Below are positions 25 to 27,015 of a DNA stretch of 32,251 bases, in pieces. Source of the DNA: Actinobacteria bacterium UBA7524 (GTDB lineage Bacteria; Actinomycetota; Coriobacteriia; Anaerosomatales; UBA912); the NCBI GenBank assembly GCA_002478275.1, contig DLMY01000017.1, forward strand, positions 1 through 32,251. The letters are read 5' to 3'. The notes beneath the pieces are model-generated. The model worked only from the letters and a program-made list of their open reading frames with translations. It did no database searches and had not been told where the DNA came from. Made by a program: the position numbers and the translations under genes. The stretch's first letter is position 1, and every line of letters starts with the position of its first letter.

Positions 25-931
25 TCATCCTTGCACCACGTGCACGGTGCGCGTGGGGAACGGGAAGTGCATCTCCTCGGCTACGAAGCGGTCGTGCAGC
101 CGGTGGATGAACGCGCTCCGGATCGGATGCTGTTCGGCGTACTCGGCCACGCGGAGCACCTGGAGGCACGTGATGCTCGAGTCCGCCAGCGCGCGGAACC
201 GGAAGATCGGCGGCTCATCGGCAAGCTCCGGCTGGAACTCGGCCATCACTTCGGCGGCGACGGCGAGCGAGAGCTCCTCCACGCGGGCGAGGTCGGCGTC
301 GTACGGCACGCCGAACTCGATGTAGACCGNNNNNNNNNNNNNNNNNNNNNNNNNNNNNNNNNNNNNNNNNNNNNNNNNNNNNNNNNNNNNNNNNNNNNNN
401 NNNNNNNNNNNNNNNNNNNNNNNNNNNNNNNNNNNNNNNNNNNNNNNNNNNNNNNNNNNNNNNNNNNNNNNNNNNNNNNNNNNNNNNNNNNNNNNNNNNN
501 NNNNNNNNNNTGAGCGTGGTGGTGCGCCACGCGATGTCGGCGACGGTGCCCTCCTGCGTCGTATCGAGCATGAGATAGTCGCCCGGGCGGATCTGCTTGG
601 AGGCCACGATCTGCAGGCCCGCGAACAGGTTGCCGAGTGTGTCCTGGAGCGCGAGCGCCACAGCGAGTCCGCCGACGCCCAGTGCGGTGATGATCGGCGT
701 GATCGAGACGTCGAGCACCGAGAGCACCGTGAGACCGCCGATGATGAGCACGGCGACGCGGGTGATGTTCACCAGGATGCTCGCCGAGGGCAGGGCCGCA
801 GACGCCGCTACCGAGCGCCTCACCAGCCCGCCGGCCACGCGCATGAGGACGAGCGTCGCCACCACGATTGCCGCGATGGTCAGGCCGCGGGTCACGTACA
901 GCTCGGGGATGTCGAAGCCAGCCAGGGTCAT
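25..931 (-). CDS. mscS: Small-conductance mechanosensitive channel (MscS family); interrupted by N gap 330-510
   Basis: N-terminal part has TM helices and 'ALGVGGLAVALALQDTLGNLFAGLQI...IRPGDYL...GTVADIAWRTTTL'. C-terminal part (25..309) has 'PYDADLARVEEL...F..LADSSI...MHFPFPTRTVH'. The frame offset across the gap is attributed to the estimated gap length. Confidence 0.93.
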
Positions 932-960
932 CGGGCCTCCGTCGTCTGTGTGCTGGCTCC

Positions 961-969
961 ACTATAGCA
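961..969 (-). promoter_or_regulatory. Putative extended -10 (TGcTATAGT) for mscS
   Basis: Reverse complement of actatagca, about 30 nt upstream of the mscS ATG, which has a GGAGG RBS. Confidence 0.45.
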
Positions 970-1042
970 ATCGGCGCCGATCCGGCGGACGGTCACCGGG
1001 CCGGCGAGCAGCATCGGCTGCGACGGCCCGCCGCGCGCTCGT

Positions 1043-1072
1043 TTGACCCTCCAAACGGCCCTGGGCTACACT
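1043..1072 (+). promoter_or_regulatory. Sigma70-type promoter of the tRNA pair
   Basis: TTGACC (1043-1048), 18 nt spacer, TACACT (1067-1072), upstream of tRNA-Lys. Confidence 0.7.
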
Positions 1073-1128
1073 ACGCGATGCGCTTCGGGCCGGGTCGGGC
1101 ACGACACGGCACGGAACGTGCAGGTCAC

Positions 1129-1204
1129 GGGCCGTTAGCTCAGTTGGTAGAGCAGGGGACTTTTAATCCCAAGGTCGCAGGTTCGAGACCTGCACGGCCC
1201 ACCA
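1129..1204 (+). tRNA. trnK: tRNA-Lys (anticodon UUU)
   Basis: GGGCCGT/ACGGCCC acceptor stem, AGCTCAGTTGGTAGAGC D-arm, anticodon loop CT-TTT-AA, GTTCGAG T-loop, encoded CCA; 76 nt. Confidence 0.98.
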
Positions 1205-1235
1205 TCAAGCCCGCCTTCGTGCGTGCGCGACATAG

Positions 1236-1311
1236 GCCCCCATCGTCTAGTGGCCAAGGACTCCGCCCTTTCAAGGCGGCAACAGGGATTCGAATTCCCT
1301 TGGGGGCACCA
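1236..1311 (+). tRNA. trnE: tRNA-Glu (anticodon UUC); ICE integration target
   Basis: GCCCCCA/TGGGGGC acceptor stem, CCGCC-CT-TTC-AA-GGCGG anticodon arm, ATTCGAAT T-loop, encoded CCA. Confidence 0.97.
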
Positions 1312-2566
1312 CATTTTCGCAGGTCAGAGGGGGTACGGCCTCTGAATTGTTGCCCGATTTGTTGCCCGATTGCTTTTCTACTGCACCTAGAGCGCCGCTG
1401 AATAGGTCGCCGATGCTGTCGGCCGCGGCCCTCTGAGTGCGGCGATCGGACCAGCAATACGTGTCCATCGTGTACGCCGATGAATGGTGACCGGCGATCT
1501 CCTGGACGACCTTCGGGCTGTTGCCCTGTCTGAGCATGAGCGAGAGCGCAGTGTGGCGCAGATCGTGAAACCGCGGTGCCAGGCGCGAGGACTTCCTGAA
1601 CTCCTGCCAGACCCACTCGAACCGTGATGGCCACCACGGCTCGCCGTCCTCTTCAGAGAACACCAGCGGGCCATACTCAAGCTGGTAGCCCTCGCCGGCG
1701 AGTTCCCGACGTGCCCGGCGATCCTCATGTTCATCCTTTGCGAGTGCCAGCGCGGTGACCAGGATTGCGGGCATTTCGATGGTTCGATGCGATCTCTCGC
1801 TCTTCGGACCCTTCAACTCGTAGCGGCCGGGCCCTTCGTCCCACGCTCGCACGACCGACAGCGTGCCGCGCACGAGGTCGACGTCATCCCAACTGAGTGC
1901 GAGGATCTCGCCGCGACGCATGCCGGTCGTGACCGCCAGCAGAACAGGCAAGTGCAGCCGAGTCCCCTCCACCGCGTTCAGAAGCGCAGCGACCTTGTGT
2001 TCGCTGAGCACCTCGACCCGATGGCGTTTGGGTCGAGGCAGTTCAACGCCACGCTCGGTGCTAGCGGGGTTGAATGCGATCCTATCCAGCTTGACGGCCT
2101 GCGAGAGGGCCTTGTGCAGCACGGCGTGTGTCTGGATCACGGTGCGCGCCGAAAGCCCAAGTCCGCCGTTCGCCTTGGGTAGCTGCATGCGCGTGTACAG
2201 CGCCTGGATGGCTTCCGCGCTCAACTTCTGAAGGCGCAGCTGTCCTAGCTCGGGCTTCAAGTAGCGCCTGATGATTCCCTGATAGCCCTTGAGCGTCGAA
2301 CCCGCCCGTCCGATCGGCGCGTAGTCCTTGATCCATGTGTCGAGCCAGTCGGCAACGCTCTGGCCTTCAGGTTTGACGTACATGCCCTTGTCGGCAGAGG
2401 TGAGCAGTCGCCTTAGCTCCCGGTTGGCAGCGGCCTTCGAGCCGGTGACGTAGTAGCAGTCTCGTTGGCGATTGCCAGCACCATCCCGTCCTCGGTCAAT
2501 GATGATCCGCCACCGATCGCGGACCACCTCGCCGTTTCGCTTATCGGACTCAACGTGACCCTTCAT
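1271..2566 (-). CDS. int: Tyrosine recombinase/integrase (ICEBs1/phage type, with N-terminal arm-binding and SAM-like domains)
   Basis: Catalytic motifs TGMRRGEI, FHDLRHT and GHHSSAYTMDTY. Start placed at ATG 2566 (GGAGG RBS; ATGA overlap with the upstream stop). The frame runs into the antisense of tRNA-Glu. Confidence 0.95.
   Translation of the reverse strand: MKGHVESDKRNGEVVRDRWRIIIDRGRDGAGNRQRDCYYVTGSKAAANRELRRLLTSADKGMYVKPEGQSVADWLDTWIKDYAPIGRAGSTLKGYQGIIRRYLKPELGQLRLQKLSAEAIQALYTRMQLPKANGGLGLSARTVIQTHAVLHKALSQAVKLDRIAFNPASTERGVELPRPKRHRVEVLSEHKVAALLNAVEGTRLHLPVLLAVTTGMRRGEILALSWDDVDLVRGTLSVVRAWDEGPGRYELKGPKSERSHRTIEMPAILVTALALAKDEHEDRRARRELAGEGYQLEYGPLVFSEEDGEPWWPSRFEWVWQEFRKSSRLAPRFHDLRHTALSLMLRQGNSPKVVQEIAGHHSSAYTMDTYCWSDRRTQRAAADSIGDLFSGALGAVEKQSGNKSGNNSEAVPPLTCENVVPPREFESLLPP
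1347..1370 (+). repeat. 12-bp tandem direct repeat TTGTTGCCCGAT x2; putative integrase arm-type binding sites of attL
   Basis: Exact tandem copies at 1347-1358 and 1359-1370, about 35 nt inside the tRNA 3' end. Confidence 0.7.
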
Positions 2567-3477
2567 ACCCCGGTGCCTCCAGATACGGTTTGGCGATGCA
2601 TTCGTTTCCGACATCGGTCGCTACAGGTCTTCCTGTCAGACCGGGCCTCGGTCGCATCCCACCAGTCCCCGCAGACCGGACAGGGGCGGTACTCTCGCTG
2701 CCCGTCGACCGCGAGTGCGAACTGCAGCCACATAGCCGCGATGAGCGACCGAACTTCGAACGTGAGCCGGAGGCCATCCGGCTGCGCGCTCGTTACTCGC
2801 ATCACCACGCGCACGGTCGCACACATCTCAGATATGAGATTGGCGAGAGCGGCGCGAGCCGCCATTTCCGGAAGGCTGGCCTTCATGAGCGGCGTGGCTG
2901 GCTCGAACTGCTCGTCGAACGTCTTCGGAGTGGTCAATCCCAAGTCGTGTTGCGCGGATGCGGTGCGTGTCCAGACCATGTACTTGGGTGCGGGCTTGCC
3001 CGGCTCGACAAGGGAGTCGTACGGCTTCACGAGCAGATCCGTACCTATCAACTCGTCAGCCTTTCCTTCGTTGATCGCGTCCCACAGTCGAACCGCAAAG
3101 GCGAGCATCTGACGATGCCCCCGCCAGATCTGGAGACTGCGCCCCTCCGAGTACACGAGGAACGGGTCATTGCTCGCCATCTCCTCGGCAGTCGCGATGT
3201 GGTCACCCACGACCACCACACCGCCGCCATCGAGATCGCCGTACCTGGCCGCAAACTCCGCGAAAGCACCTTCGGTGTCTCGTTGATCCGCGAATCTCCG
3301 AAACAGCGCCGGTTCGCTCTTCAGGGGCTGATAGCCATCATCCGCGGGGTGGCCCGCCAGCAGACGCTGGTTCTTAGGGCCGATCCATCGGCCTTCTGCC
3401 ATGCGCCACCACTGGAAGTCCACGAGGGCGGCGGGTGATACCGAGCTGATTCGCGATGTCACAGTTCTGTCCTCCAT
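2563..3477 (-). CDS. CGNR-type zinc-finger domain protein (putative regulator), translationally coupled to int
   Basis: C-terminal CPVC-x13-TCSDRCRKRMHR motif; its stop codon overlaps the integrase ATG. Confidence 0.75.
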   Translation of the reverse strand: MEDRTVTSRISSVSPAALVDFQWWRMAEGRWIGPKNQRLLAGHPADDGYQPLKSEPALFRRFADQRDTEGAFAEFAARYGDLDGGGVVVVGDHIATAEEMASNDPFLVYSEGRSLQIWRGHRQMLAFAVRLWDAINEGKADELIGTDLLVKPYDSLVEPGKPAPKYMVWTRTASAQHDLGLTTPKTFDEQFEPATPLMKASLPEMAARAALANLISEMCATVRVVMRVTSAQPDGLRLTFEVRSLIAAMWLQFALAVDGQREYRPCPVCGDWWDATEARSDRKTCSDRCRKRMHRQTVSGGTGV

Positions 3478-3547
3478 AGCCGTCTACCTATATGCAGACA
3501 CGGACAACATACTTCGCATAGGACAATGCCTGCAATAGAAAGGCGGA

Positions 3548-3766
3548 TTGATGCTCAGGATTCAGAGGCTCCGGGAGGACCAGGGGCTTAGTCGGTCGGC
3601 TTTGGCTCGCATCGCTCTCATGCATGCGGCAACGGTGGGGCAGATCGAGAGTTGCTACATCGGGCGACCGTATCAGTCGCAACTCGAGAAGCTCGCGGCC
3701 GCTCTCGGGTTCACGGGCGATGCGGAGGAGTTGCTCGAGGAAGTCGACATCGATGAGCGGCCATAG
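3548..3766 (+). CDS. XRE-family HTH transcriptional regulator
   Basis: 'IQRLREDQGLSRSALARIALMHAATVGQIESC...LEKLAAALG'; AAAGG RBS; divergent from the zinc-finger/int operon. Confidence 0.85.
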   Translation: MMLRIQRLREDQGLSRSALARIALMHAATVGQIESCYIGRPYQSQLEKLAAALGFTGDAEELLEEVDIDERP

Positions 3767-4091
3767 CCTCGCCGGATACGGTGAACTCCTAACCATGGAG
3801 GAAGTGTGCATTGTGCTCCAGCTGAGTAGAAACACGGTCTACGAACTCGCCCGCACAGGCGATGTTCCGACCATTCGTCTCGGGCGTCAGTTGCGGACTC
3901 CTCGCGCTGCCTTAGAGCAGATGATGGACCGCTCTGCCNNNNNNNNNNNNNNNNNNNNNNNNNNNNNNNNNNNNNNNNNNNNNNNNNNNNNNNNNNNNNN
4001 NNNNNNNNNNNNNNNNNNNNNNNNNNNNNNNNNNNNNNNNNNNNNNNNNNNNNNNGACCGCTCTGCCGAATGCGACAGTGCCGATGTCTAA
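3753..4091 (+). CDS. Excisionase-like HTH_17 (MerR-type) DNA-binding protein; spans an N gap that is probably near zero length
   Basis: 'LLTMEEVCIVLQLSRNTVYELARTGDVPTIRLGRQLRTPRAAL'. GACCGCTCTGCC occurs on both sides of the gap. Confidence 0.85.
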   Translation: MSGHSLAGYGELLTMEEVCIVLQLSRNTVYELARTGDVPTIRLGRQLRTPRAALEQMMDRSAXXXXXXXXXXXXXXXXXXXXXXXXXXXXXXXXXXXXXXXDRSAECDSADV

Positions 4092-4443
4092 CGAGGAACT
4101 TACCGGCAAGGCTTGCGCCAGTTGCGGTTCTCGACCAGAGGGGGGAGACACGATCTCAGGCAATTGCGGATCCGACACATGTAGCGACGGTGGGCAGGAG
4201 ACGTCACTCGAGCGGGCAGGCGAGCTCGAGGGCGAGACGTCCAGCATCGGACCGGCGCAGCTCGACGAGAACGGCCTCACGATTGATGAGGCCTGCAAGG
4301 TGATTCACTGCACGCGCGAGTGGCTGCGCAGGAAGATCCATTCGGGGGAGATTGCGACGTATCGCGTCGGGGGACGTCTCCGCGTCACGCAAGCGGCCAT
4401 CTCGCACATCCCGCCGGAACACTCCCCGGGCGACCCGACCTAG
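4084..4443 (+). CDS. Second excisionase-like HTH_17 protein with N-terminal extension
   Basis: 'LTIDEACKVIHCTREWLRRKIHSGEIATYRVGGRLRVTQAAI'; overlaps the previous stop. Confidence 0.75.
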   Translation: MSNEELTGKACASCGSRPEGGDTISGNCGSDTCSDGGQETSLERAGELEGETSSIGPAQLDENGLTIDEACKVIHCTREWLRRKIHSGEIATYRVGGRLRVTQAAISHIPPEHSPGDPT

Positions 4444-4447
4444 TCCA

Positions 4448-4978
4448 TTGAGCATTTCGGTCATGAGCGCGGTCATCAAGCGCTACGGCGGCAAACCCCA
4501 TCTGAAACTCACACTCCTGATTCTCGCCGACCGGGCCAGTGACGACGGCTACTGCTGGCCGTCGTACGACGAGCTTGCAGGCAAGCTTGGCTGCTCACGA
4601 CGCTCCGCAATCAACAACGTCAACGCCCTCATCGAAGCCGATCTGCTGCAGATCGTGGCCAAGGGCGGACGGTTCACCGACCCGCAGACGAAGAAGCACC
4701 GCGGATTCTCAAACCGTTTTGTCATCAATGTCGCGGCAATCGAGGCGTTGCCCCTGCTCTACCAACCGCGACGGAGTTCTCCACAGGGCGCGGTGGACGG
4801 CTGCAGCGCACTGCAAGACATGGGTGAAGTGGGCTTCACCCATGCAAGCACGGCAAGGGTGAAGCCCACTTCACCCGGTACGTCAGACAAGACATCAAGT
4901 TCAACCGTCACCGGCGAAATGCCTGTGGAGAACCTCATCCGGTACCTCGCTGATGCCTGGAAGGTGCCCGATCACTAA
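4448..4978 (+). CDS. HTH_36-type (phage replication initiator-like) helix-turn-helix protein
   Basis: 'LKLTLLILADRASDDGYCWPSYDELAGKLGCSRRSAINNVNALIEADLL' is typical of phage/ICE Rep N-termini. TTG start is inferred. Internal palindromic repeats are present. Confidence 0.75.
   Translation: MSISVMSAVIKRYGGKPHLKLTLLILADRASDDGYCWPSYDELAGKLGCSRRSAINNVNALIEADLLQIVAKGGRFTDPQTKKHRGFSNRFVINVAAIEALPLLYQPRRSSPQGAVDGCSALQDMGEVGFTHASTARVKPTSPGTSDKTSSSTVTGEMPVENLIRYLADAWKVPDH
4822..4876. repeat. Pair of palindromic iteron-like sites GGGTGAAG-N4-CTTCACCC, together forming a perfect 20-bp inverted repeat
   Basis: 4822-4841 GGGTGAAGTGGGCTTCACCC and 4857-4876 GGGTGAAGCCCACTTCACCC are exact reverse complements, separated by 15 nt. 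Confidence 0.8.
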
Positions 4979-5032
4979 GCCTCGGCATGCATTGCCATCA
5001 GTCACGCGGTACACTTAGAGGAGGATCGGCGC

Positions 5033-5263
5033 GTGAGAGAGTTCAAGGACGTCAAGAAGCGCGACGTGATACGCGCGTTTGCCACGATCCGTCTGGCAAT
5101 GGAAGAGAAGTGCGACAGGCTAACTGACTGGACAGACCAGGGCAACGCTCTGGAGCAAGCGCTGAGCCTCAGGATGGAAGAGAACGTAACCAAAGGGCTC
5201 GACTTCGTGGAGAGATTCCTCCTCGGTACACGAGAGGAGGTAAGTGAGGAGGGACGCATCTGA
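5033..5263 (+). CDS. Hypothetical protein (76 aa)
   Basis: GAGGAGG RBS before GTG; TGATG coupling with the next gene. Confidence 0.65.
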   Translation: MREFKDVKKRDVIRAFATIRLAMEEKCDRLTDWTDQGNALEQALSLRMEENVTKGLDFVERFLLGTREEVSEEGRI

Positions 5264-5775
5264 TGACCAAGAAGACCGCGCACGCCGAGTTGGTCGATCG
5301 AGTAGGCGCTGAAGAGGCCGATCGCCTCACGCAGATGTTCCTGGAAGATCTCATGACGAAGCGCGAGGCGGCCGCTGAGCTCGGCATGTCGCTCAGCGTG
5401 CTCGAGTACCGACTGTCGCAAGGCGACACGAAGTACGCGAGGCTCTTGTCGGAGTCGGTCAAGCCACACGGCCAAGCCCGCTGGGTGGTCGTGCGTGAGC
5501 CGATACCCGGTCGGCCGCAGACGGCGCGTGAGGCTTTGGCCGAACTGTTCGGAGCGGAGGAGGCGGACCGCCTCGTCGGTCTGTTCCTGTCCGAGCTGAT
5601 GCTCGCCGACGAAGCGGCGGCGATCGTCGGGATGCCTGCCAAGACTCTGCGGGCGGACATGTACAAGGGAGTCGTGCCGTACTCGAGGAAGCTCGATCCC
5701 GCGGCTCACAAGAGCCCGTGGGTCGTGTTGCCCGACGCGCTACCCGCCATCAAGAAGAAGCGGGAGGGGCGATGA
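5263..5775 (+). CDS. Protein with two tandem HTH-like (excisionase/MerR-like) repeats
   Basis: Internal duplication: 'GAEEADRLTQMFLEDLMTKREAAAELGMS' versus 'GAEEADRLVGLFLSELMLADEAAAIVGMP'; GGAGGG RBS. Confidence 0.7.
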   Translation: MTKKTAHAELVDRVGAEEADRLTQMFLEDLMTKREAAAELGMSLSVLEYRLSQGDTKYARLLSESVKPHGQARWVVVREPIPGRPQTAREALAELFGAEEADRLVGLFLSELMLADEAAAIVGMPAKTLRADMYKGVVPYSRKLDPAAHKSPWVVLPDALPAIKKKREGR

Positions 5776-5990
5776 GCGTGTACACGAGTCATGACGTCTA
5801 CCGAATCATTGCTGCGGACGGTGGCGGTGTGCGCATCGTGATGCCCGGTGGTCTCGCCACCACCGCACTTGAGGAATCGTATCCGAGCGCGAGCGCCGCC
5901 GCTGCGGCAATCGCGGATGCGATCAAAGGCGGAATGCCAGCGTTTGAGGTCGTGGACGAGACCGAAGCCTCGCGTGCCGGCCGCGCGTAG
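5772..5990 (+). CDS. Hypothetical protein (72 aa)
   Basis: GGAGG RBS, ATGA overlap with the previous stop, followed by a terminator. Confidence 0.6.
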   Translation: MSVYTSHDVYRIIAADGGGVRIVMPGGLATTALEESYPSASAAAAAIADAIKGGMPAFEVVDETEASRAGRA

Positions 5991-6033
5991 AAGGCGTCGA
6001 GAGTCGCTATCCTCCCGAGCACGCCAACTACTG

Positions 6034-6065
6034 AAGGGACCTCGGCAGACATGCCGGGGTCCCTT
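6034..6065 (+). terminator. Intrinsic terminator-like hairpin
   Basis: AAGGGACCTCGGCA-gaca-TGCCGGGGTCCCTT stem after the HTH operon. Confidence 0.7.
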
Positions 6066-6235
6066 GTCATATCCTGTTATGCAGACTGCAGAGTCCTTGT
6101 TGGAAAGACGCCATACGTCTCACCTTGGCGAGCACGAGTAGGATGCGGGGAAGGCGAGCCTCTGTAGTCGGCGGCGTGAACTGAGCAGGCCTGGCGCTTG
6201 AGGCTGGAGTTGTGACGGGCAAGCTGCGTCAGACC

Positions 6236-6517
6236 TCAAGCCAAGCCATAGTGTGTCATCTCCCCGCGGACTTCAATGATCTCCCGGTTCAGCTGAGCGA
6301 GGTACTCATTCGCCACCTGTGAGAATAGGTCATCGCCAATCTCGGCCAACTCGATCCGAAACTCTCCGTCCTTCATTCGGGCAATCAGCATGTTGAACGC
6401 CGCCTTGACCGCGTTCGGATTATCCTCGGACAAGGGAATCATGATCGCACTCTCTCCCTCAATGCGGATGAAGTGCTTACCTTCAACCTCCACGACGGCG
6501 GCGCTAAGTGTTTCCAT
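6236..6517 (-). CDS. Small acidic hypothetical protein (93 aa), partner of the PHP-ATPase
   Basis: ATG at 6517 overlaps the 3' end of the upstream gene: 'METLSAAVVEVEGKHFIRIEG...SQVANEYLAQLNREI'. Confidence 0.75.
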   Translation of the reverse strand: METLSAAVVEVEGKHFIRIEGESAIMIPLSEDNPNAVKAAFNMLIARMKDGEFRIELAEIGDDLFSQVANEYLAQLNREIIEVRGEMTHYGLA

Positions 6518-8651
6518 AGATTCGCCCTCGCTCTCCAAATGCTTCTTCTCCGCCTTCAAGAGTCCTCATGCTGATTGACTTCCAATCTAGCCGGTCGTTC
6601 TCGTCATCCGAGTTGACTAGGTTGTTCGAAAAGGGATTTCCAGTGTATGTGCGATAACCCTCAGGCCCGTGGTGCCTGTAGACGGAGCTGTAGGGAAGGG
6701 TTCGCACTGCAATATTTGCGTCGTGCGTCGCAATGAATACCTTCTTGCCCGCTCGCGCACGCTCCTTTATGAGCGGAACAATCACGTCACTAATGTACTC
6801 GTTGCCCAGACTTCGCTCCGGCTCATCCAGGATGTACACGTCCTTGTCCGTCCCGAGTTCTTTCTGCAACATCACCATCGAAGCCTCACCGCTTGACGGT
6901 GTGTATTCGGCCCCATCCAGTGAGAAGTACCTCTTGAAGAGCAGAAGTCCGAGCACGGTCCTGATTGCCTCTGCGTCTTCAATCGTGTTGAGGTCGGAGA
7001 CGTGTTGAAACAGGTCGTCTGCGTAGGCGTGCTCAAGAATCATGTTGATGCATTGGGCGAACTTCTTCTGCGGCCCCTTCTTTGTTGCGTGACTGAGACT
7101 GGACAGCCTGCCGTCAGTGACATGTCCAGTCTGGAATTTGTATTCTGTCCGAAGTTCCAGCTCACCCTTGCTGGTTCCGAGACTCCCGATGTGCTCTTTG
7201 ATCGGCGGGATTTCGGTATTGATGCTCTTCACGATCTCGGCAGCAGCGACCTCGATCTTCATGCGATTCAGTGCGTAATCGCGAAAGCCAGTCGTTGTGG
7301 GTTTCGCTGGCGATCCCGTCTTCCGCTCTACCTCTCTTTGGAACGTCCTAATCGCTGAATTCAAGAAATGGATCTCTTTCCAGCCAGCAAAGCTCGCCCA
7401 CGAGCGCTTGGCCAATCGCTCGTGGAGTGCCGACAGGATGCGGGTCAGCTGCTCGTGCTCCTCCTTGTCGAGCTCATCCTTCACGAATTGGTTCGCGGTT
7501 AGGAAGTCGACGAAGTCCCTGGTCTTCTTCAGCGCCTCGTGGACTTCTTTGAACTCGCGTTCGGCCCCGGATTCGCCCTCAAGGCTGATGTCTTTGAGCA
7601 GAATCTTCTTGGCGTTCCTGTTGGTGCTCTTGGCCTCGAAGTAGCCTACGTATTTTCCGAGGCTTGCAACGTCAACCTCGCGGGCAATGCGTAGGGCCTT
7701 GATCTGATCGGTGCAGTAGTTGATCTCGTACGTGTTCAGATTGATCGACAGATTGCTGCCCTTCGTGTCGTAGATCTCGTCCAGCCGGTCGCTCGCTGGC
7801 GCATAGACCTTTGCGTCGACCCCGTTCGCCGTGTAGTGCTTGGCGATAGCCTTCAGAACACAGGACTTGCCTGTCCCCTTTGGACCGAATATGACATTGA
7901 TGTCGTTGAATGCCTTGACGCTCAGCACTGAGTCGTCTCCAAAGGGACAAAGCTCGAGATCCTCGGAGGTCTTCCGGTCAAGCACCGTATTGATCGTGGT
8001 CGGATCCTTCTCGAGCAGCAGGCAGAAATGCTCGAAACTGTCGACAGGAAGTCGGAGATCAGGCAACTCCTGAGCGAGTTCTTCGTATTTCGCCCAGTCA
8101 TGAACATCTGATCCGTGAATGGATGCGTGCCCGTGCGAGATGTAGATTCCGGCTGAGATCGAGTTGGTGACCTCTTTGATGACACGACCTGGATTCTTGG
8201 TCCCTGTCAGCAGCCTCTCAAGAGAGGCCTCTGAAAGACAGGGCATCTTCTGCTGATAGTGGGCAACGTACAGCGGATTGAGGGAATCGAACTTGGCTAG
8301 GACGTCGTCGACTGTGGCCGCGAATTGGTCCGGAGTTGAATCCTTTGTCAGTTCCTCGACCGCCACAGAGAAGTCGCCCGCTGACTTCGGTGAGACAATG
8401 AGCAACAAGTGGCCCCTGAGTTCTCCATCAACAATGTCGAGCTCAATGCCGGGCCACACTTGTGCGTCATGGCCCAAGCCGGTCTCGATTTCCTTGAATT
8501 GCTCCAGGTCGAAGACATTGTGATTGGTGATCGCAATGATACCGACATCCGTGGACAAGACCGTCTTGCAGAAGTCCTCCGGAGCAATATCCCTAGTGGG
8601 CGCATCCCCGGACTTACACTTCCTGGTATGAGCATGTATGTCGATGTTCAC
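6504..8651 (-). CDS. PHP-domain phosphoesterase fused to coiled-coil ABC/SMC-like ATPase (Ppl/TrlF-like, putative anti-phage)
   Basis: PHP motifs IDIHAHT, ITNHN, GIELD, GSDVHDW; Walker A GPKGTGKS; signature PSSGE; Walker B YILDEPE; H-loop ATHDAN. GTG start at 8651 follows GAGGA. Confidence 0.85.
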   Translation of the reverse strand: MNIDIHAHTRKCKSGDAPTRDIAPEDFCKTVLSTDVGIIAITNHNVFDLEQFKEIETGLGHDAQVWPGIELDIVDGELRGHLLLIVSPKSAGDFSVAVEELTKDSTPDQFAATVDDVLAKFDSLNPLYVAHYQQKMPCLSEASLERLLTGTKNPGRVIKEVTNSISAGIYISHGHASIHGSDVHDWAKYEELAQELPDLRLPVDSFEHFCLLLEKDPTTINTVLDRKTSEDLELCPFGDDSVLSVKAFNDINVIFGPKGTGKSCVLKAIAKHYTANGVDAKVYAPASDRLDEIYDTKGSNLSINLNTYEINYCTDQIKALRIAREVDVASLGKYVGYFEAKSTNRNAKKILLKDISLEGESGAEREFKEVHEALKKTRDFVDFLTANQFVKDELDKEEHEQLTRILSALHERLAKRSWASFAGWKEIHFLNSAIRTFQREVERKTGSPAKPTTTGFRDYALNRMKIEVAAAEIVKSINTEIPPIKEHIGSLGTSKGELELRTEYKFQTGHVTDGRLSSLSHATKKGPQKKFAQCINMILEHAYADDLFQHVSDLNTIEDAEAIRTVLGLLLFKRYFSLDGAEYTPSSGEASMVMLQKELGTDKDVYILDEPERSLGNEYISDVIVPLIKERARAGKKVFIATHDANIAVRTLPYSSVYRHHGPEGYRTYTGNPFSNNLVNSDDENDRLDWKSISMRTLEGGEEAFGERGRIYGNT

Positions 8652-8742
8652 GACTGTGTCTTCCTCATATCCATCGTCCACCACCCATGAGGATAGATGC
8701 CAGGAGTACCAACTGGAAAGTCCCGGTTATCCGTGGTGCGCT

Positions 8743-8829
8743 TTCCAACAAGCGCATCAAGCTGACGCGAGAAGCAGTCGGCTATCCTGAAGGCGCACGG
8801 CGCGCAGCTTATGCGCAACAACGTTAGGC
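8743..8829 (+). other. attC: attC recombination site (59-base element), 87 bp
   Basis: R'' TTCCAAC. Left arm GCGCAT-C-AAGCTG-A-CGCG pairs perfectly with right arm CGCG-CAGCTT-ATGCGC, leaving two extrahelical bases (G and T on the bottom strand). R' GTTAGGC fits GTTRRRY. Confidence 0.88.
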
Positions 8830-8839
8830 CGTTCGAAGC

Positions 8840-9058
8840 TCATCCGCTATGGCCTACGTCTCGTGGCGGACACGGATCACCAGGGATCTCAACACCGGGC
8901 TTCACGGACGGATCCGCCACGATCACTCCCTTACTGATGAGGTCGAGAAGCGTTCGGGCGAAATGCTGTGACTCCTCCAACGTGAGATCACATCCCCTTC
9001 GCGCCATGGCCTTCTGGATCGCCGCACCGAACACCGGACTCCGGCATTCCTCATCCAC
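8840..9058 (-). CDS. Hypothetical protein (72 aa)
   Basis: Purine-rich RBS (GGAAGAG) before ATG; occupies otherwise empty space; no recognisable motif. Confidence 0.4.
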   Translation of the reverse strand: MDEECRSPVFGAAIQKAMARRGCDLTLEESQHFARTLLDLISKGVIVADPSVKPGVEIPGDPCPPRDVGHSG

Positions 9059-9198
9059 TCTTCCGAACCCCCATTCGTGTCGGACCTGCCCCGCAGTCTG
9101 CGTATATGCTAGACCCTCGGAACGGAAGGATGGGGTAAGCGGCGGGCAAGCGATGCGTGCTAGCCTCGCCGTTGTCTGATTCGATGAGAGGACCGCGC

Positions 9199-9468
9199 GT
9201 GAGCGCAGACGACCGAGGCGTCCGAATCGATGCTATCGCCGCGAAGGCCCTCATGCTTGCACGTGGTGACACGTTTGCGGTGCCAGTGGCGGGAGATGAG
9301 CGCGAGGCGGAGCGTGCTCTGGCGGATATCGAACGCGCAATCGAGAGACAGTACGATGCGGGCCGCGACATGCTGCCCGATCTCGCACACCTCGACGAGC
9401 TAACGATGAGCTGCATCCGAACCGATCGATCCTTCCACATCGTCATCGAGCGAGGGACGGCTTCCTAA
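9199..9468 (+). CDS. Hypothetical protein (89 aa)
   Basis: GAGAGGA RBS before GTG 9199; helical, protein-like composition. Confidence 0.55.
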   Translation: MSADDRGVRIDAIAAKALMLARGDTFAVPVAGDEREAERALADIERAIERQYDAGRDMLPDLAHLDELTMSCIRTDRSFHIVIERGTAS

Positions 9469-9507
9469 GAACAGTGCGTTTACCTGCAGTTAGCCTCGTC
9501 TACATGC

Positions 9508-9536
9508 TTGCCATCGGTTGCGCGATACGCTAGACT
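9508..9536 (+). promoter_or_regulatory. Sigma70-type promoter, copy 1 of duplicated leader
   Basis: TTGCCA-17 nt-TAGACT followed by GAGGTGTCAGCAAGTC and GAAGGGAG RBS; near-identical copy at 10123. Confidence 0.8.
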
Positions 9537-9573
9537 AGAGGTGTCAGCAAGTCAACCGAAGGGAGCAAGACAG

Positions 9574-9837
9574 ATGAGCGAAACCAAGAAGCGGGTGCGT
9601 CCGGCAACATCCATCCCCATCGACCCCGCGAAGTTGCGGCTGGTGCTGCGCCGCCGATTCATCACCAACCGCGAGGCGAGCGAATTGCTCGGCAAGTCCT
9701 CCGAATGGATGGCGGTCGTGCTGAACAAGAGGCGCATCAACTTCTACATGCTCGACGACCTCGCGGGAGCTCTGAACATGAACTTCAGCGACCTGTTCGA
9801 GGAGATCGTCGACGAGGAGCAGTGGCTGGCGCTGTAG
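9574..9837 (+). CDS. Cro/C1-type HTH protein (87 aa)
   Basis: 'KLRLVLRRRFITNREASELLGKSSEWMAVVLNKRRINFYMLDDLAGALNMNFSDLF'; GAAGGGAG RBS. Confidence 0.75.
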   Translation: MSETKKRVRPATSIPIDPAKLRLVLRRRFITNREASELLGKSSEWMAVVLNKRRINFYMLDDLAGALNMNFSDLFEEIVDEEQWLAL

Positions 9838-9843
9838 GCCTCA

Positions 9844-9867
9844 GAGCCCCCGCTAATGCGGGGGCTC
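9844..9867 (+). terminator. Terminator-like hairpin
   Basis: GAGCCCCCGC-TAAT-GCGGGGGCTC perfect 10-bp stem just after the stop. Confidence 0.7.
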
Positions 9868-10122
9868 GCCACTCTGCACTCGTGCACAGCGCAAGGGCGG
9901 CTAGGGCCGAACGCCCGCACCCGCCGATCCGCCCCGGATGTCGTTCGTCCTCGGCACGATCAGCCGAGGACTCCTCACCGGCTGTGGCCTGGCTGCGGCC
10001 GCCAGATCTTCGGCATGGAAGGGGGAGGATGGGTTCTGCGATGTTCGGCTGTCAAGGGTGACAACGTCCGGTGACCTGCCAGAAAAACATGCTCTGACCT
10101 GCGAATATTCTCAGAATAGTTC

Positions 10123-10151
10123 TTGCCATTAGTTGTGCGATACGCTACACT
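10123..10151 (+). promoter_or_regulatory. Sigma70-type promoter, copy 2 of duplicated leader
   Basis: TTGCCA-17 nt-TACACT followed by GAGGTGTCAGCAAGTC and GAAGGGAG RBS. Confidence 0.8.
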
Positions 10152-10188
10152 TGAGGTGTCAGCAAGTCGCGATGAAGGGAGCACCACA

Positions 10189-10659
10189 ATGGCAAGGAGC
10201 AGGAAGAGTTACCCGCAAGGCATGGCGCTGCAGGTGGTTTCCACCTACCTCGTGCGCGAGACGGTATCGAGCGAACTCGACACCGTGAGTACGCCCGAGG
10301 ATGCAGCAAAGGTCGTTCGTGACCTGTTCGACTTCGACCACCTCGACCGTGAGCAGTTCGTCGCACTGGCTCTCAACACCAAGAACCGCGTAATCGGTGC
10401 GTGGGCTGTGTCGGTCGGAAGCCTGAACGCCTCAATCGTCCACCCCCGCGAACTGTTCAAGCCCGCCGTGATGCTCTCGGCAGCCTCCATCGTCATCGCC
10501 CACAACCACCCGAGCGGCGACCCGACGCCGAGCGGTGCCGACATCCAGCTGACCCGCCGCATCGTCAAGGGCGGGGACGTTCTCGGTATCGAACTCCTCG
10601 ACCACGTGGTCGTGGGTGACGAGTCCATCGCCTCGCTTCGTGACTTGGGTCTGATGTAG
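10189..10659 (+). CDS. radC: RadC-like JAB/MPN domain protein (short, mobile-element type)
   Basis: 'REQFVALALNTKN...SVGSLNASIVHPRELFK...AHNHPSGDPTPSGAD...LLDHVVVG'. Confidence 0.95.
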   Translation: MARSRKSYPQGMALQVVSTYLVRETVSSELDTVSTPEDAAKVVRDLFDFDHLDREQFVALALNTKNRVIGAWAVSVGSLNASIVHPRELFKPAVMLSAASIVIAHNHPSGDPTPSGADIQLTRRIVKGGDVLGIELLDHVVVGDESIASLRDLGLM

Positions 10660-10670
10660 AAAGCGCACCA

Positions 10671-10702
10671 CTTGGGGGTCGGGTTCGCGCCCGGCCCCCA
10701 AG
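10671..10702 (+). terminator. Terminator-like hairpin after radC
   Basis: CTTGGGGGTCGGGT-TCGC-GCCCGGCCCCCAAG stem. Confidence 0.65.
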
Positions 10703-11094
10703 CCCCCGCAAGCGGGATCTTGGGGGCGTCGCCCCGTAGAGATCAAGGTCGCCCGCGGGCCGACCAGCGCTTCGCGCTCACCCGCGATATCATTACTCCT
10801 GACGGCTCTTCATTGAGCCGTGTGCTTCCCGGACTTGCTGACACTTCTCCGGGGACGGGGCATCCAGCTCAATCGAGCCGGGTGCCCCGTCGCTTTGTCG
10901 TGTCCTCCGCACGGTCGCCACGATCCCGACGTCCGTCCGCCGGCCTGACCACAGGCAGCCCACCTGTGGACAGCCCAACCGTCTCCGACCTGCTTCAGGG
11001 GTCGGAGACTCGGACTTCCCGAATCACATCGCGGACTTCACTCGCGCGGCGTTCAGCGAGTCCGGGCGGTTGGAGAGAGAACGCAGGATAAGCG

Positions 11095-11335
11095 TCGCTG
11101 CTCAGTTCGCAGCACCGCGAGGCGAACGCATCACCGGCTAAGCCGGTGAGCAGCCGAAACCCGTCCGAGACTCTGCCCAGCAGCAGAGCTGCTATCGGGC
11201 ACGTGCGGCCATCCAGAGCTGCTCACAGCCAAGCACGAGAGCTGCTCGGAAATCGGCCCCTTGATCCGGCCTCCAAGGCGAAAGTCCTGTGCACTCGTGC
11301 AGAGCGCGTACCATGCGCTCTTGCATACCAGTCCT
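11095..11335. other. Candidate oriT region
   Basis: Non-coding DNA directly upstream of mobC and the relaxase. AGAGCTGCT repeats at 11185, 11215 and 11238; imperfect hairpin TGCAGAGCGCGT-ACC-ATGCGCTCTTGCA at about 11299-11326. Confidence 0.45.
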
Positions 11336-11356
11336 CGGATGGAAGGGTGCCCTGTC

Positions 11357-11806
11357 GTGTCAAACAAGCATGCGCCTCTAGGAAGCGCGGGAACGCCGAA
11401 GCGCCTGATGATCCGGCTGACGCCGGAGGACTACGACAGGCTTTCGGCCCTGGCGGCCCACGACGGCGTTGCGATGGCCGTCAAGGGGCGCGAGGTGATG
11501 CTGGCGGGGATGGATCCGCAGATCTTCGGTGAGCGTTACTACGACGTCGAGCGTCTACTACGCAGCGTTGTCAAAGCCGAGATGGAGACGCACTCGGAGC
11601 GGCTGCACAGGAGGCTCTATCGGGTCGGTGGCATCACGGCCGCGATGGTGTACTTCGTCCGCGAGATACTCGCCAGGGTCCTCGAACTCGATCCACACGG
11701 TGTCACGCAGATGTGGCGAGAGGCCGAGGGCCACGGGTTCAAGTACATGGGTGCGAAGCAGCCCGAATCGCGGCTGGACGATGACGGGGCGGGGAGCACG
11801 CCGTGA
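11357..11806 (+). CDS. Ribbon-helix-helix relaxosome accessory protein (MobC-like)
   Basis: 'KRLMIRLTPEDYDRLSALAAHDGVAMAVKGREVM' RHH pattern; GTGA overlap with the relaxase start. Confidence 0.7.
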   Translation: MSNKHAPLGSAGTPKRLMIRLTPEDYDRLSALAAHDGVAMAVKGREVMLAGMDPQIFGERYYDVERLLRSVVKAEMETHSERLHRRLYRVGGITAAMVYFVREILARVLELDPHGVTQMWREAEGHGFKYMGAKQPESRLDDDGAGSTP

Positions 11807-13323
11807 CACTCGGGCCTCTCGTCGTCAAAGTCAGCTACGCCGCTCCGAGCGCCGGGGACGGCGCGCACGCCACCTACATAGCCACGCGGCCCGGCACGGA
11901 CCTGACCGTCACGGCCGATTCGGTCGCACGGATGGTGACTCGCGATGTCGCAGACGACGCCACGTACACCCGCTACATCGCCGAGCGCCCGGGCGTCGTC
12001 GCCGACGGCGGGGCCCACGGCTTGTTCGACGAGAACGGCATCCCCGATATTGCCTCCGTCACCGATGAGCTCGCGGCTCTCTCGCACGCCCCGATCTACC
12101 GTGTGATCGTCTCCGTCAGCCGAGCTGACGCCGAGGAGATCGGCCTGGAGTCCAAGGCGCAGTGGGAGCGCCACGTTCGCGCCAGCGTCGACGCACTGTC
12201 CACGGCTACCGGAATCCCGCGAGAGAACATGCGCTGGGTGGCGGCCCACCACAATCCCGTGGCCGGGCATCCGCATGCGCACATCATGATCTGGGACAGG
12301 ACCGATAGTCCCGCGTTCAAGCGAGTAGTCCCCCAGCGGCGAGCGGGAGCAGGCCACATACCAGCTCCCCGGCTGAAGGCCCTTCGCGGGGCGTTCACTC
12401 GCGAGATCTACGGCGCAGTGCGCGAGGGCGTGTATGAGGCAAAGGGTCGCGCGCGCTCAGAGATCCGCATGTTCGGCACCACGTCCCTGTCTCTGGCCGT
12501 GGAGGAGCGCCGGCAGATCGGGGCGGGGCTCGCACTCCCCGCAGTCTCAGACCTCACGCGCGACCTGGATGCTCTGTCGCGCACACTGCCCGGGCGTGGC
12601 CGAGCGGCGTACAAGTACGTCTCACCTGAGACCAAGGCCGCAGTCGATCGGATCGTGGACAAGCTGATGTCAGCAGCGCCGATCGCCGAGCGGGTCACCG
12701 GGTATGCCGACGCCGCCGTGGAGCTCAAGCGCCATCACACCGCCGATCCCGATGAGCTCGCATCCGCGCGCGCCAACGCGGAGGCGGACGCGCGAGCACG
12801 GCTCGCCCCCGACGTGCTGCAGGCCGCCGTGAGCATCCAGATCCTGAGGACGGGCGAGGGCATCATACGGACTGCTCCGCTGGTGGTCCGCAACCACCTT
12901 CTCCAAGGGGCGCCCGAGCCGACACGTGTGTTCTACGCCCGGGCTCTCATGACCGCGGGGATCGACGCGCACACGGCAGCCAGCGTGATGGTCAAGTCGT
13001 GTAGGGGCGACGAGCCGCTCGAGGCTACGGCCCACCGCATCGCGGCCGTCTTCGCGGAAGCCCAACCTCTTCGCCCGTCCGAGTGGGCGGCGTGGCGCAA
13101 CGAGAATGCGCTCCCCGAGCTCTCGGCGGGACTTCAGCAGACCGCGGCCACGCTCCACCTGCTTGAGCAGGTATCACGGCATCTGTCTCCGCAGAGTGCC
13201 CCACGGGCCCAGGAGGTCGCACGGGTCGACTGGGGCCGGCTCGGACGAGCCACGAGCCCGACAGGGCGCACGGATGGGGGCCGCGGAATGACGCTCGACC
13301 CACGCGACGGCCTGTCGTCTTAG
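11803..13323 (+). CDS. MobP3/MobL-type HUH relaxase
   Basis: YIATRPG and YIAERPG tyrosine motifs, 'HGLF', 'RVIVSVSRADA', and HUH motif 'WVAAHHN...HPHAHIMIWD'. Confidence 0.88.
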   Translation: MTLGPLVVKVSYAAPSAGDGAHATYIATRPGTDLTVTADSVARMVTRDVADDATYTRYIAERPGVVADGGAHGLFDENGIPDIASVTDELAALSHAPIYRVIVSVSRADAEEIGLESKAQWERHVRASVDALSTATGIPRENMRWVAAHHNPVAGHPHAHIMIWDRTDSPAFKRVVPQRRAGAGHIPAPRLKALRGAFTREIYGAVREGVYEAKGRARSEIRMFGTTSLSLAVEERRQIGAGLALPAVSDLTRDLDALSRTLPGRGRAAYKYVSPETKAAVDRIVDKLMSAAPIAERVTGYADAAVELKRHHTADPDELASARANAEADARARLAPDVLQAAVSIQILRTGEGIIRTAPLVVRNHLLQGAPEPTRVFYARALMTAGIDAHTAASVMVKSCRGDEPLEATAHRIAAVFAEAQPLRPSEWAAWRNENALPELSAGLQQTAATLHLLEQVSRHLSPQSAPRAQEVARVDWGRLGRATSPTGRTDGGRGMTLDPRDGLSS

Positions 13324-13407
13324 AAGAACACTCCCGGAAAGGTAGTGCCAATGGCTGCCCGGTACGCTCAAGTGGGCGCTGTCCGCGAATCGATGAAGGA
13401 GACACGA

Positions 13408-14208
13408 ATGCAGAGAACGACCCGGAGGATCGCAATCGCCTCGCAGAAGGGCGGCGTCGGGAAGACGACCACGGCGTGGAACGTCGCGGCAGGGCTCACC
13501 GCCAAGGGACGCGACGTACTCGTCGTGGATCTCGACGGCCAGTGCCACCTGACCACCGGCGTGCTCGGCGCACCGCCAGCGCGAAGCCTGTGGGACGTGT
13601 TGATGGGCAGCATGATCGCCGAAGAGGCCATCGTGCCAGGCCCGGAGTTCGCGCTGCTACCCGCCTCCGAGATGCTGTCTCGCGCCGACTACGATCTCGG
13701 CGGCCGGCCGGGACGGGACTTCCTTCTCTCCCGCGCTCTGAAGGGCCGGCGCGATCCGGGGAGCGGCACACGGGCGCCGGGTGTGCAGGACGACTACGAC
13801 TACATCATCCTGGACTGCCCGCCGTCTCTCGGCATCATGACCGCCAACGCGCTCGCCTACGCCAGCGAGGTCATCGTCCCGGTCACCCCGGGGCTCTTCG
13901 CCGTCAGTGGGCTTGGGATGCTGGGCTCCGTCATCGCTGAGACGATCGACGCCGGCGTCAACGAGGACCTGGGAATCGCCGGCATCCTGCTCACTCAGTA
14001 CGAGGGTGGTACGGGTCTGCACCGCAGTATCGCGTCAGCCGTCGAGGAGCAGTTCCCCGGGCTGCTCTATCCGCTCGCGATCCGCAAGAACGTAGCGATC
14101 GGCGAAGCGCACGCCGAGGGCCGAAGCGTGCTGTCCTACGCGCCGAAGAGTCACGGCGCGGCCGACTACACCGAACTCGTCGAGCATCTGATCAGGCAGG
14201 AGGGTTAG
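13408..14208 (+). CDS. parA: ParA/Soj family partition ATPase
   Basis: SQKGGVGKTT, VDLDGQ, YDYIILDCPPSLG, IRKNVAIGEA; AAGGAG RBS before ATG 13408. Confidence 0.95.
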   Translation: MQRTTRRIAIASQKGGVGKTTTAWNVAAGLTAKGRDVLVVDLDGQCHLTTGVLGAPPARSLWDVLMGSMIAEEAIVPGPEFALLPASEMLSRADYDLGGRPGRDFLLSRALKGRRDPGSGTRAPGVQDDYDYIILDCPPSLGIMTANALAYASEVIVPVTPGLFAVSGLGMLGSVIAETIDAGVNEDLGIAGILLTQYEGGTGLHRSIASAVEEQFPGLLYPLAIRKNVAIGEAHAEGRSVLSYAPKSHGAADYTELVEHLIRQEG

Positions 14209-14210
14209 GC

Positions 14211-15164: not shown

Positions 15165-15168
15165 CACC

Positions 15169-16257: not shown

Positions 16258-16259
16258 CG

Positions 16260-16571
16260 ATGCTCCCCGCCCGCCGTCCGCGCCTGGTGGCGCAGCGCCG
16301 TGACGCGGAGGCCCGCAGGACACGTGGCGCCGCAGAGCAGCGCGCCCGCGAACTTGAGGCGCGCAAGATTGCCCAGGCGATCGAGCGCGCTCGCGCCCGC
16401 AAGCGCCGGGCTGCCACCCCGCTCGCGCGGGCCCTTGAGACCGCTGGCGGATGGGTCCTGTCGATCCTCGGCGCGCTCGTTGTCTCGCTCGCGCTTACCT
16501 GGCTTCTTCGCCACCCGCAAACGCTCGACTCACTGATGAGCGCGGTGCGGTCGTTCCTGCGCCTCCAGTAG
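16260..16571 (+). CDS. Small basic membrane protein
   Basis: GGAGGA RBS; Arg-rich N-terminus and one TM helix 'WVLSILGALVVSLALTWLL'. Confidence 0.6.
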   Translation: MLPARRPRLVAQRRDAEARRTRGAAEQRARELEARKIAQAIERARARKRRAATPLARALETAGGWVLSILGALVVSLALTWLLRHPQTLDSLMSAVRSFLRLQ

Positions 16572-16672
16572 GGCGCCGCACGGATGCGTAAGGGGCCGCT
16601 GAGCACAAAGTCAGAGTCGGTCAGAGCGTTGACGTACGATTCCGCCGACAGGGAGCTCGAGGAGGAATCTCA

Positions 16673-18302: not shown

Positions 18303-18305
18303 CCC

Positions 18306-27014: not shown

Positions 27015-27015
27015 C

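Follow-up and report, generated by a model that had tools for sequence, protein, structure and literature searches.

A single gene cassette at a putative attI site carried by an integrative and conjugative element that lacks an integron integrase gene

How does a defence-like pair of genes flanked by a lone attC site come to lie in an integrative and conjugative element (ICE) that encodes no integron integrase? This question is raised by a 32,251-nt stretch of DNA (hereafter, the window) from Actinobacteria bacterium UBA7524 (contig DLMY01000017.1), in which a preliminary description made from the sequence alone had recognized an orphan integron cassette. Our analyses show that the genes belong to an integron gene cassette. 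We consider it likely that the cassette resides at an attI site of the ICE itself, where the chromosomal integron integrase (IntI) of the host would recombine attC with attI between G6099 and T6100, the ICE then carrying cassettes onward. The features discussed below are listed in Table 1.

The attC site is genuine. It harbours the conserved cores TTCCAAC (8743-8749) and GTTAGGC, arranged in the R''-L''...L'-R' inverted-repeat layout. The minimum-energy structure of positions 8743 to 8829 is, on both strands, a 16-bp stem with two single-base bulges, C8758 and A8765 on the top strand, which give an extrahelical T and an extrahelical G on the bottom strand. Such a T and G form the canonical pair that marks the recombined bottom strand of attC sites. 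The fold energy is unremarkable (z-scores of -1.0 to -1.9, not significant alone), and when both flanks are extended by 6-8 nt, local hairpins become the minimum-energy structure. The significance of the site thus comes from the repeat family to which it belongs, not from its fold energy.

Six further copies of the site, with 74-85% identity, are found in the source genome (G000; 1.81 Mb in 60 contigs). In an alignment of the seven copies, the ...AAC and GTT... cores are invariant, both bulge columns are kept in all seven, 98% of the cells are paired and four pairs show a double-sided change. A covariance model built from these copies (R1) identified 18 attC sites in G000, six of them on contig C58, four on C42, two each on C28 and C27, and one each on C34, C38, C4 and the window. 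They are 67-109 nt long and lie head to tail, a few hundred bases apart, and the window site scores 94.4 bits. To avoid circularity we built a second model (R2) from 93 attC sites of eight other genomes, which is independent of G000. In its alignment 95.2% of the cells are paired, as compared with only 26-40% in slid controls; there are 349 double-sided changes versus 119.5 in shuffles, 14 of the 21 pairs show such a change, and both bulge columns are kept. R2 matches the window attC with 80.5 bits (E value 1.9e-18), which is the sole match below E 0.1, the runner-up in the window scoring 13.7 bits. The only non-pair flagged by R2 at this site falls in the R''/R' box, as expected because R' is completed by foreign DNA.

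Neither model detected a second attC in the window, and Pfam and NCBIfam family searches found no intI gene there. These results agree with the preliminary description, which had called the site a canonical attC with two extrahelical bases, had seen neither an intI nor a second attC in the window, and had suggested searching with an attC covariance model and looking for attC sites of the same family elsewhere in the genome. Two other candidates in the window were discarded: the left flank (6000-6100), considered as a degenerate attC, matches neither R1 nor R2, and the open reading frame (ORF) at 5718-5990, considered as an intI remnant, matches no family.

We next consider the limits of the cassette. 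In cassette arrays, the R'' box of each attC complements the first bases of its own cassette. The 9-mer GTTGGAAAG is present twice in the window, at 6099-6107 on the forward strand and at 8741-8749 on the reverse strand, with an expected number of 0.05; two copies occurred in 0 of 100 shuffles. The 9-bp reverse complement of R'' that the preliminary description had noted upstream is thus exact, and it extends to a perfect inverted repeat of 12 nt (6096-6107 with 8741-8752). We read by eye the same correspondence for nine adjacent pairs of the G000 arrays. It amounts to 9/9 in three pairs (C42 15300 -> 14634, C42 14634 -> 13955 and C58 4238 -> 3642), to 8/9 in one (on C28), to 7/9 in another and to at most 6/9 in the remaining four, one of which spans a run of Ns. 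As the arrays' own pairs reach 9/9, the 9/9 of the window behaves as that of a true cassette.

The same cargo is found behind another attC. Positions 6099-8740 of the window are 94% identical to positions 59-2699 of contig C11 of a related genome (G065), where the homology likewise sets in at this G|TT and follows immediately on another attC (2691-2753). That array adjoins the pnp terminator, ribF and truB, and hence lies in plain chromosome. The G065 cassette start carries an A-to-T change for which no covariation of R'' could be traced: the three other CTATCCAAC sites of G065 are not attC sites, and the contig ends 58 nt past the cargo. Wider searches yielded one locus in genome contigs, labelled 'uncultured Eubacteriales bacterium', and one in metagenome contigs, at 73% identity and devoid of an attC of the window's family. 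At 2.7 kb, the window cassette is far longer than those of the neighbouring arrays, with their spacing of ~0.3-1.3 kb. Altogether, the R2 match, the 9/9 agreement of R'', the presence of the same cargo after another attC and the breaks at both ends in related ICEs (see below) support the proposal of the preliminary description that 6100-8823 is one bona fide integron gene cassette, with G|TT on both sides and no local integrase.

Integrases that could act on such sites are frequent in the lineage. Among 146 species-level genomes of the same order, 96 encode proteins above the 265-bit cut-off of TIGR02249, mostly with ~390-490 bits, as compared with none of 14 control genomes. The IntI protein of a genome of the same family (G004) scores 475.9 bits and aligns over its full length (residues 21-330) with IntI4 (PDB 2a3v, E value 7e-91). 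Many of the intI genes sit at contig ends. On the 3' side of intI we found 105 attC matches in 90 kb at eight loci, with arrays at all eight and ~100 matches on the intI strand; no attC was detected in 72 kb on the 5' side at 11 loci. The absence of attC 5' of intI and the arrays 3' of it on the intI strand identify an inverted layout. In the accessible part of PMC4889954, this 'inverted' layout, with intI on the attC strand, is described for Treponema. Right after intI, the sequence of four loci (L068, L070, L071 and L072) reads as small genes rather than as an attI core; our guess, made from the DNA by eye, is that they are antitoxin-like or toxin-antitoxin-like (e.g. the frame starting with MDAIPY).

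Integrons are described as rare in Actinobacteria in the surveyed genomes (PMC4889954, PMC9024848, accessible parts), the second of these surveys reports no complete integrons there, and a 2026 study refers, in its accessible part, to their 'virtual absence' in Actinomycetota (PMC13323075). The remark of the preliminary description that integrons are considered rare in Actinobacteria is therefore in line with these surveys of the phylum, as far as their accessible parts go, but it does not hold for this order.

These data bear on the idea that the 91-nt repeat is no attC at all but a REP-like (repetitive extragenic palindromic) or terminator-like palindrome, in an ICE locus that would be a generic hotspot for defence genes filled by other means. 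The weak fold z-scores, the lack of any matching Rfam family in 5900-9300 and the orientation of both cargo genes, antisense to the repeat, are compatible with it. The idea is already largely refuted by the repeat arrays directly 3' of true IntI genes at eight of eight loci, by the R''/L''/L'/R' layout with its conserved AAC...GTT, two bulges and strong covariation, and by the neighbouring sites that follow the R''-to-5'-end rule. We regard it as extremely improbable.

The integron reading calls for a target site. The left part of the ICE backbone ends with CAGACTGCAGAGTCCTT|GTT, which agrees at 18 of 20 bases with the attI core that at least 25 genomes of the order carry shortly 3' of intI. 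In four of them (G052, G053, G081 and G094) the sequence just 3' of intI reads ...ACACAGACTGTAGA(T/A)TC(G/A)TT|GTTAG..., and its ICE counterpart, ...ATGCAGACTGCAGAGTCCTT|GTT, has identical spacing; the similarity with the intI-adjacent site of G081 extends further upstream. The pattern CAGACTGYAGANTCNTTGTT (two mismatches at most), which was written after both the chromosomal and the ICE sites had been seen, has 96 matches in 56 of the 146 genomes, as compared with 12 for the reversed control. Twenty-seven of the matches, in 25 genomes, are located 91-1619 nt 3' of intI on the same contig and strand, and seven correspond to the ICE site (in G000, G026, G035, G040, G043, G047 and G033). The ICE copy does not adjoin an intI gene: it is homologous to intI-adjacent sites but detached. 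It has the sequence of the lineage's sites and a G|TT crossover that abuts first cassettes. To judge by its sequence, the ICE target is therefore a copy of the attI of this lineage that is reused by different cassettes, not an arbitrary GTT.

Other attI-like cores lie apart from intI as well. In some genomes the core is 0.7-1.6 kb away from intI, and five genomes (G030, G031, G092, G137 and G145) have five or six attI-like cores, many more than the one or two intI genes that each of them carries. The lineage may commonly have attI sites that are detached from intI. G000 itself has a second attI-like core with one mismatch (contig C38, 2068-2087), followed by a 432-aa ORF and an attC (3647-3734), with no integrase frame upstream. 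On contig C11 of G065, an attI-like core with three mismatches (6900-7100 of the extracted locus) lies directly behind the pnp terminator and starts an array of at least five cassettes without intI. The R'' of its first cassette agrees with the 5' end at 9/9 positions, and the intI gene and main array of G065 are on another contig.

The related ICEs show how the site has been used. Among the 146 genomes, seven share the left flank up to window position 6099-6109. The right flank resumes at 8826-8830 in G038, G035, G026, G040 and G043, and at 9107/9108 in G047, G033 and G064. Different inserts lie in between, consisting of 854-1823 bp or of longer arrays. Compared base by base, the window and five relatives continue after the shared ...GAGTCCTTG with TTGGAAAG, TTGGGCGT, TTAGGACG, TTAGGCAG, TTAGCAGG or CTAGCACC, and two further related ICEs break at the same place, which makes seven in total. 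Four attC sites are present at the ICE site in G064, three in G047 and one each in G035, G043 and G040. The R'' of the first cassette agrees with its own 5' end at 9/9 positions in the window and in G035, 8/9 in G047 and 7/9 in G043. The backbone from 511 to 20000 is otherwise collinear in G035, G047, G026 and G040 at 82-90% identity, the cassette site being its sole break, and the hosts of the collinear backbone include genomes of other families. Since different first cassettes with matching R'' boxes start at the same G, the left junction of the ICE appears to be recombinationally active, and the resemblance of the ICE flank to intI-adjacent attI sites would explain its reuse.

These comparisons also bear on a simpler scenario, in which IntI inserted an isolated cassette only once, at an arbitrary GTT of the ICE acting as a secondary site (attG). 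The window indeed has a single attC and no intI, and isolated cassettes and off-site insertion are documented, at least in the accessible part of bioRxiv 10.1101/2022.09.11.507474. A single event at a secondary site would leave the first cassette fixed. This scenario is disfavoured because seven related ICEs share the breakpoint and a base-by-base comparison of five of them revealed different cassettes. Furthermore, the 20 nt that end at the crossover match the consensus of intI-adjacent attI sites at 18 positions, and the R'' of the first cassette matches its own 5' end in three or four of the five ICE junctions, that of the window included. We find a one-off insertion very unlikely. The preliminary description had called the cassette an orphan; it is indeed a single cassette without intI, but the arbitrary target that the term implied gives way to a reused copy of attI. 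It had also reasoned that different junctions in related ICEs would speak against a cassette, and this outcome was not observed.

Metagenomes provide a further view of the locus, which is present in runs from hydrocarbon, groundwater, wastewater, sediment and oil-field samples. Runs from two further studies each contain a contig that spans the two junctions (5903-9148 and 6002-8926), together with contigs that diverge from the window at 6101 or 6105. This co-occurrence fits an exchange of cassettes at the ICE site. Alternatively, a piece of a chromosomal integron (attI plus array) might have entered the ICE through illegitimate or homologous recombination and left a site that is now inert and whose variation reflects homologous exchange through the flanks, and decay. 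Units of attI plus array without intI are also found at plain chromosomal places, as seen above for the array behind the pnp terminator in G065 and the C38 site of G000, and the three of eight ICE inserts without a detectable attC look like decay, so that some copies may be relics. As a general explanation this is unlikely: several different first cassettes with a matching R'' are joined precisely at G|TT, variants that depart from the window exactly at 6101 or 6105 occur together within one metagenome, and most genomes of the order encode IntI.

Several observations, in addition to the unremarkable fold energy of the attC, weigh against a cassette inserted by IntI at an ICE-borne attI. First, the inverted repeat extends by 3 nt past the crossover (6096-6098 with 8750-8752, CTT with AAG), more than the simple cassette model calls for. 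AAG is a conserved spacer after R'' in this attC family and CTT is the end of the ICE attI; their pairing may be due to chance or may be useful. Second, the homology with G065 ends at window position 8740, just short of the attC, and the 58 nt that remain on the G065 contig do not resemble the window attC; the cargo is thus not always tied to this attC. Third, the match of the window to the attI pattern without any mismatch is partly by construction, as the pattern was drawn from both kinds of sites. Fourth, the first-cassette R'' of G040 agrees at only 4/9 positions, and no attC is detectable in the inserts of G038, G026 and G033. Fifth, no empty attI, which the preliminary description had pointed to in related ICEs, was found among the eight related ICEs or in the contigs of four metagenome runs, and those contigs also contain no circular cassette junction and no joint across 6100-8823. 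Finally, G000 encodes no protein above the TIGR02249 cut-off; its best two matches (81.5 and 72.6 bits) are Xer-like. As this genome is 83% complete, the presence of a trans-acting IntI in this host is assumed.

Cassette loading at an ICE-borne attI nevertheless accounts best for the reuse of one junction by different cassettes. The resident chromosomal IntI would excise cassettes from the sedentary array of the host and, presumably acting in trans, would recombine their attC, as a folded bottom strand, with the attI of the ICE at G|TT. The ICE, if it is still transferring, could thereby load, swap and export cassettes between hosts of the order, and the IntI of a recipient could unload those delivered by the ICE. 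On a larger scale, the uncultured order labelled Coriobacteriia may have ancestral, near-universal sedentary integrons with inverted intI. Its ICEs might have turned a bare attI into a domesticated 'landing pad' and might parasitise the IntI of their hosts. The ICE would then be a shuttle and the chromosomal integron a bank, with the detached attI-plus-array units behind pnp in G065 and on contig C38 of G000 as outposts. We see the arguments for and against this broader scenario as evenly balanced. An ICE with attI and cassettes but no intI would cheaply link the sedentary integrons of different hosts and would show how large, self-expressed defence operons travel. The system is directly testable, with one enzyme, one attI and one attC, each defined to the base.

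The host is probably actinobacterial, on the basis of the depositors' labels only, and its order may be OPB41/Anaerosomatales. Among the 120 closest relatives of its PNPase, 16 carry an organism label, which is Coriobacteriia for 13 and Actinomycetota, Actinobacteria bacterium HGW-Actinobacteria-7 and Clostridiales for one each. Neither G000 nor five near-complete relatives have WhiB, and G000 also lacks Spo0A_C, so that these proteins are uninformative as phylum markers.

The cargo of the cassette consists of a predicted PHP and ABC/SMC-type ATPase and a small partner. The true start of the ATPase is probably ~12 codons inside the frame, because its relatives have 714 residues. It matches three PDC-M49A models of PADLOC, only partially (E values of 9e-39 at the N-terminus, 2.5e-22 at the C-terminus and 4.3e-11), and the TrlF family with 80 bits, far below the cut-off of 350; no curated family cut-off is reached. 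Weak matches were obtained with the AriA, PtuA and GajA models of PADLOC and with AriA of PDB 8ux9 (E value 1e-4). The ATPase has 1044 relatives at E values of 1e-10 or better, and nearly all of the best 120 are 69-75% identical to it. Some relatives are labelled Sedimentisphaerales, Nitrospirales or Thiodiazotropha, and many are found on contigs of 2.5-5 kb. The 107-aa partner is 70% identical to the ORF at the same position in a metagenome locus (L077) and has a weak LmuC-like stretch (E values of 0.0068 and 0.00048); it matched no Pfam or NCBIfam family and no PDC-M49 model. We suppose that these genes are expressed from within 8650-8740 or through read-through from the 72-aa gene of the backbone. 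Defence-like is a reasonable label for this cargo, not a result, and an anti-phage role would be in keeping with these resemblances.

The predicted ICE around the cassette encodes a PF00589 integrase, a protein with a weak match to MobL relaxases, ParA, a SpaA/sortase protein, an NlpC/P60 protein and a TraG-type P-loop ATPase. Its tyrosine integrase scores only 28.6 bits against TIGR02249 (cut-off 265) and hence is not an integron integrase. The tRNA-Lys/tRNA-Glu region is probably the integration target, as judged from a 78-nt stretch that recurs elsewhere in five related genomes with ~90% identity. What the preliminary description had called a backbone terminator left of the cassette is a hairpin that six related ICEs retain, with base changes that are matched in both arms (e.g. 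gggacc/ggtccc versus gagacc/ggtctc). The hairpin is thus conserved, but its identification as a terminator finds no support: it has no T tract, and the terminator scan lists nothing there, the promoter and terminator scan of the window having yielded nothing useful. To the right of the cassette, five related ICEs have the 278-nt segment 8830-9107, with the 72-aa ORF, and in G047, G033 and G064 other DNA takes its place.

The same ICE also carries a Pbe-type module (23108-28983), as a second defence locus, and a 980-aa frame (18306-21248) with a thioester domain, four SpaA-type domains and a C-terminal sortase domain, an adhesin-sortase fusion. The window contains runs of Ns at 330-510, 3939-4055, 30476-30520, 30676-30844 and 31676-31919, and the low-GC bins at its ends are artefacts of such runs.

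Table 1. Positions of the cassette, its recombination sites and other features in the window
Feature	Position	Strand	Remarks
Gene cassette, 2,724 bp	6100-8823	+ (attC orientation; two genes on opposite strand)	5' end TTGGAAAG complements R''
attC	8741-8831	+	R'' 8741-8749; L'' arm 8752-8769; variable loop 8770-8800; L' arm 8801-8816; spacer 8817-8822
attC right core, R' GTTAGGC	8823-8829	+	Crossover G8823|T8824
attI-like core of the ICE, CAGACTGCAGAGTCCTTGTT	6082-6101	+	0 mismatches to pattern (partly by construction); 18/20 to consensus; crossover between G6099 and T6100
Backbone resumption and right half of the interrupted attI	8824-8839	+	TTAGGCCGTTCGAAGC...; right flank common to G038, G035, G026, G040 and G043 from 8826-8830
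PHP and ABC/SMC-type ATPase, 726-aa frame	6504-8684	-	NIDIHAHT (PHP) and GPKGTGKS (Walker A) motifs
Small partner ORF, 107 aa	6236-6559	-	Overlaps end of ATPase gene
GC-rich hairpin of ICE backbone	6034-6065	.	Just left of attI core; 14-nt arms, 93% complementary; 4-nt loop
72-aa backbone ORF	8840-9058	-	ORF list; co-directional with cassette genes
Inverted second CAGACTGC box	9098-9113	-	Exactly at alternative right boundary 9107/9108 of G047, G033 and G064
tRNA-Lys (1129-1204) and tRNA-Glu (1236-1311)	1129-1311	+	ARAGORN; integrase end of ICE
ICE tyrosine integrase, 447-aa frame	1271-2614	-	PF00589, 4.5e-21
N6/N4 DNA methylase	23108-24223		Pbe-type module
MTaX1 protein	24099-24737		Pbe-type module
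PbeA helicase	24734-26833		PADLOC 1.2e-204
PbeC/DndD-like ATPase	27016-28983		PADLOC 2.7e-191

Finally, we compared the locus with known systems. Our literature search found no paper that joins integron, Coriobacteriia and attC, or integrons with Anaerosomatales or OPB41; supplements might list such genomes. Mobile integrons of the class 1-5 type, which reside on transposons, plasmids or ICEs, encode an intI of their own and have the cassette promoter Pc. They resemble the window locus in having attI and cassettes on a transmissible element able to move cassettes between hosts. In contrast, the window ICE has attI and cassettes only, without intI, and would depend on the chromosomal IntI of its host. 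With sedentary chromosomal integrons of the inverted-intI type, the order shares a true IntI, long arrays of conserved attC sites 3' of intI on its strand, and the R''-to-5'-end rule. The window differs from these in that its only cassette lies on a conjugative element that lacks intI, in a phylum reported to be without complete integrons in the accessible part of PMC9024848.

The locus is closer to single attC sites (SALIN) or clusters of attC sites (CALIN) lacking integron integrases and to attG insertions, which likewise comprise attC sites or cassettes without a nearby integrase, with IntI assumed to act in trans (bioRxiv 10.1101/2022.09.11.507474 and PMC4889954, as far as their accessible parts describe them). 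As the element has no intI, the window locus is a SALIN by the definition published there, not a complete integron. Unlike the non-classical insertion sites reported in those sources, which do not resemble att sites, its target is a recognizable, putative copy of attI reused by different cassettes. The cargo resembles a defence system, as do the anti-phage cassettes described in the accessible parts of bioRxiv 10.1101/2024.07.02.601686 and 10.1101/2024.07.02.601719, one of which has its own promoter; it differs from them as a candidate relative of PDC-M49A, with partial matches, in a cassette of 2.7 kb. Its Walker A motif and ABC signature recall, weakly, AriA of PARIS, PtuA, GajA and LmuB/LmuC of Lamassu, with the LmuC-like stretch in the partner, but the window ATPase has an N-terminal PHP domain in place of the usual nuclease partner. 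Cassettes, attC, attI, CALIN, SALIN, off-site insertion and defence cassettes were thus already established. What the present locus adds is an intI-less attI platform that appears fixed in an ICE family, and sedentary integrons that are nearly universal within an order labelled Coriobacteriia, in contrast with the statements on the phylum in the accessible parts of PMC9024848 and PMC13323075.

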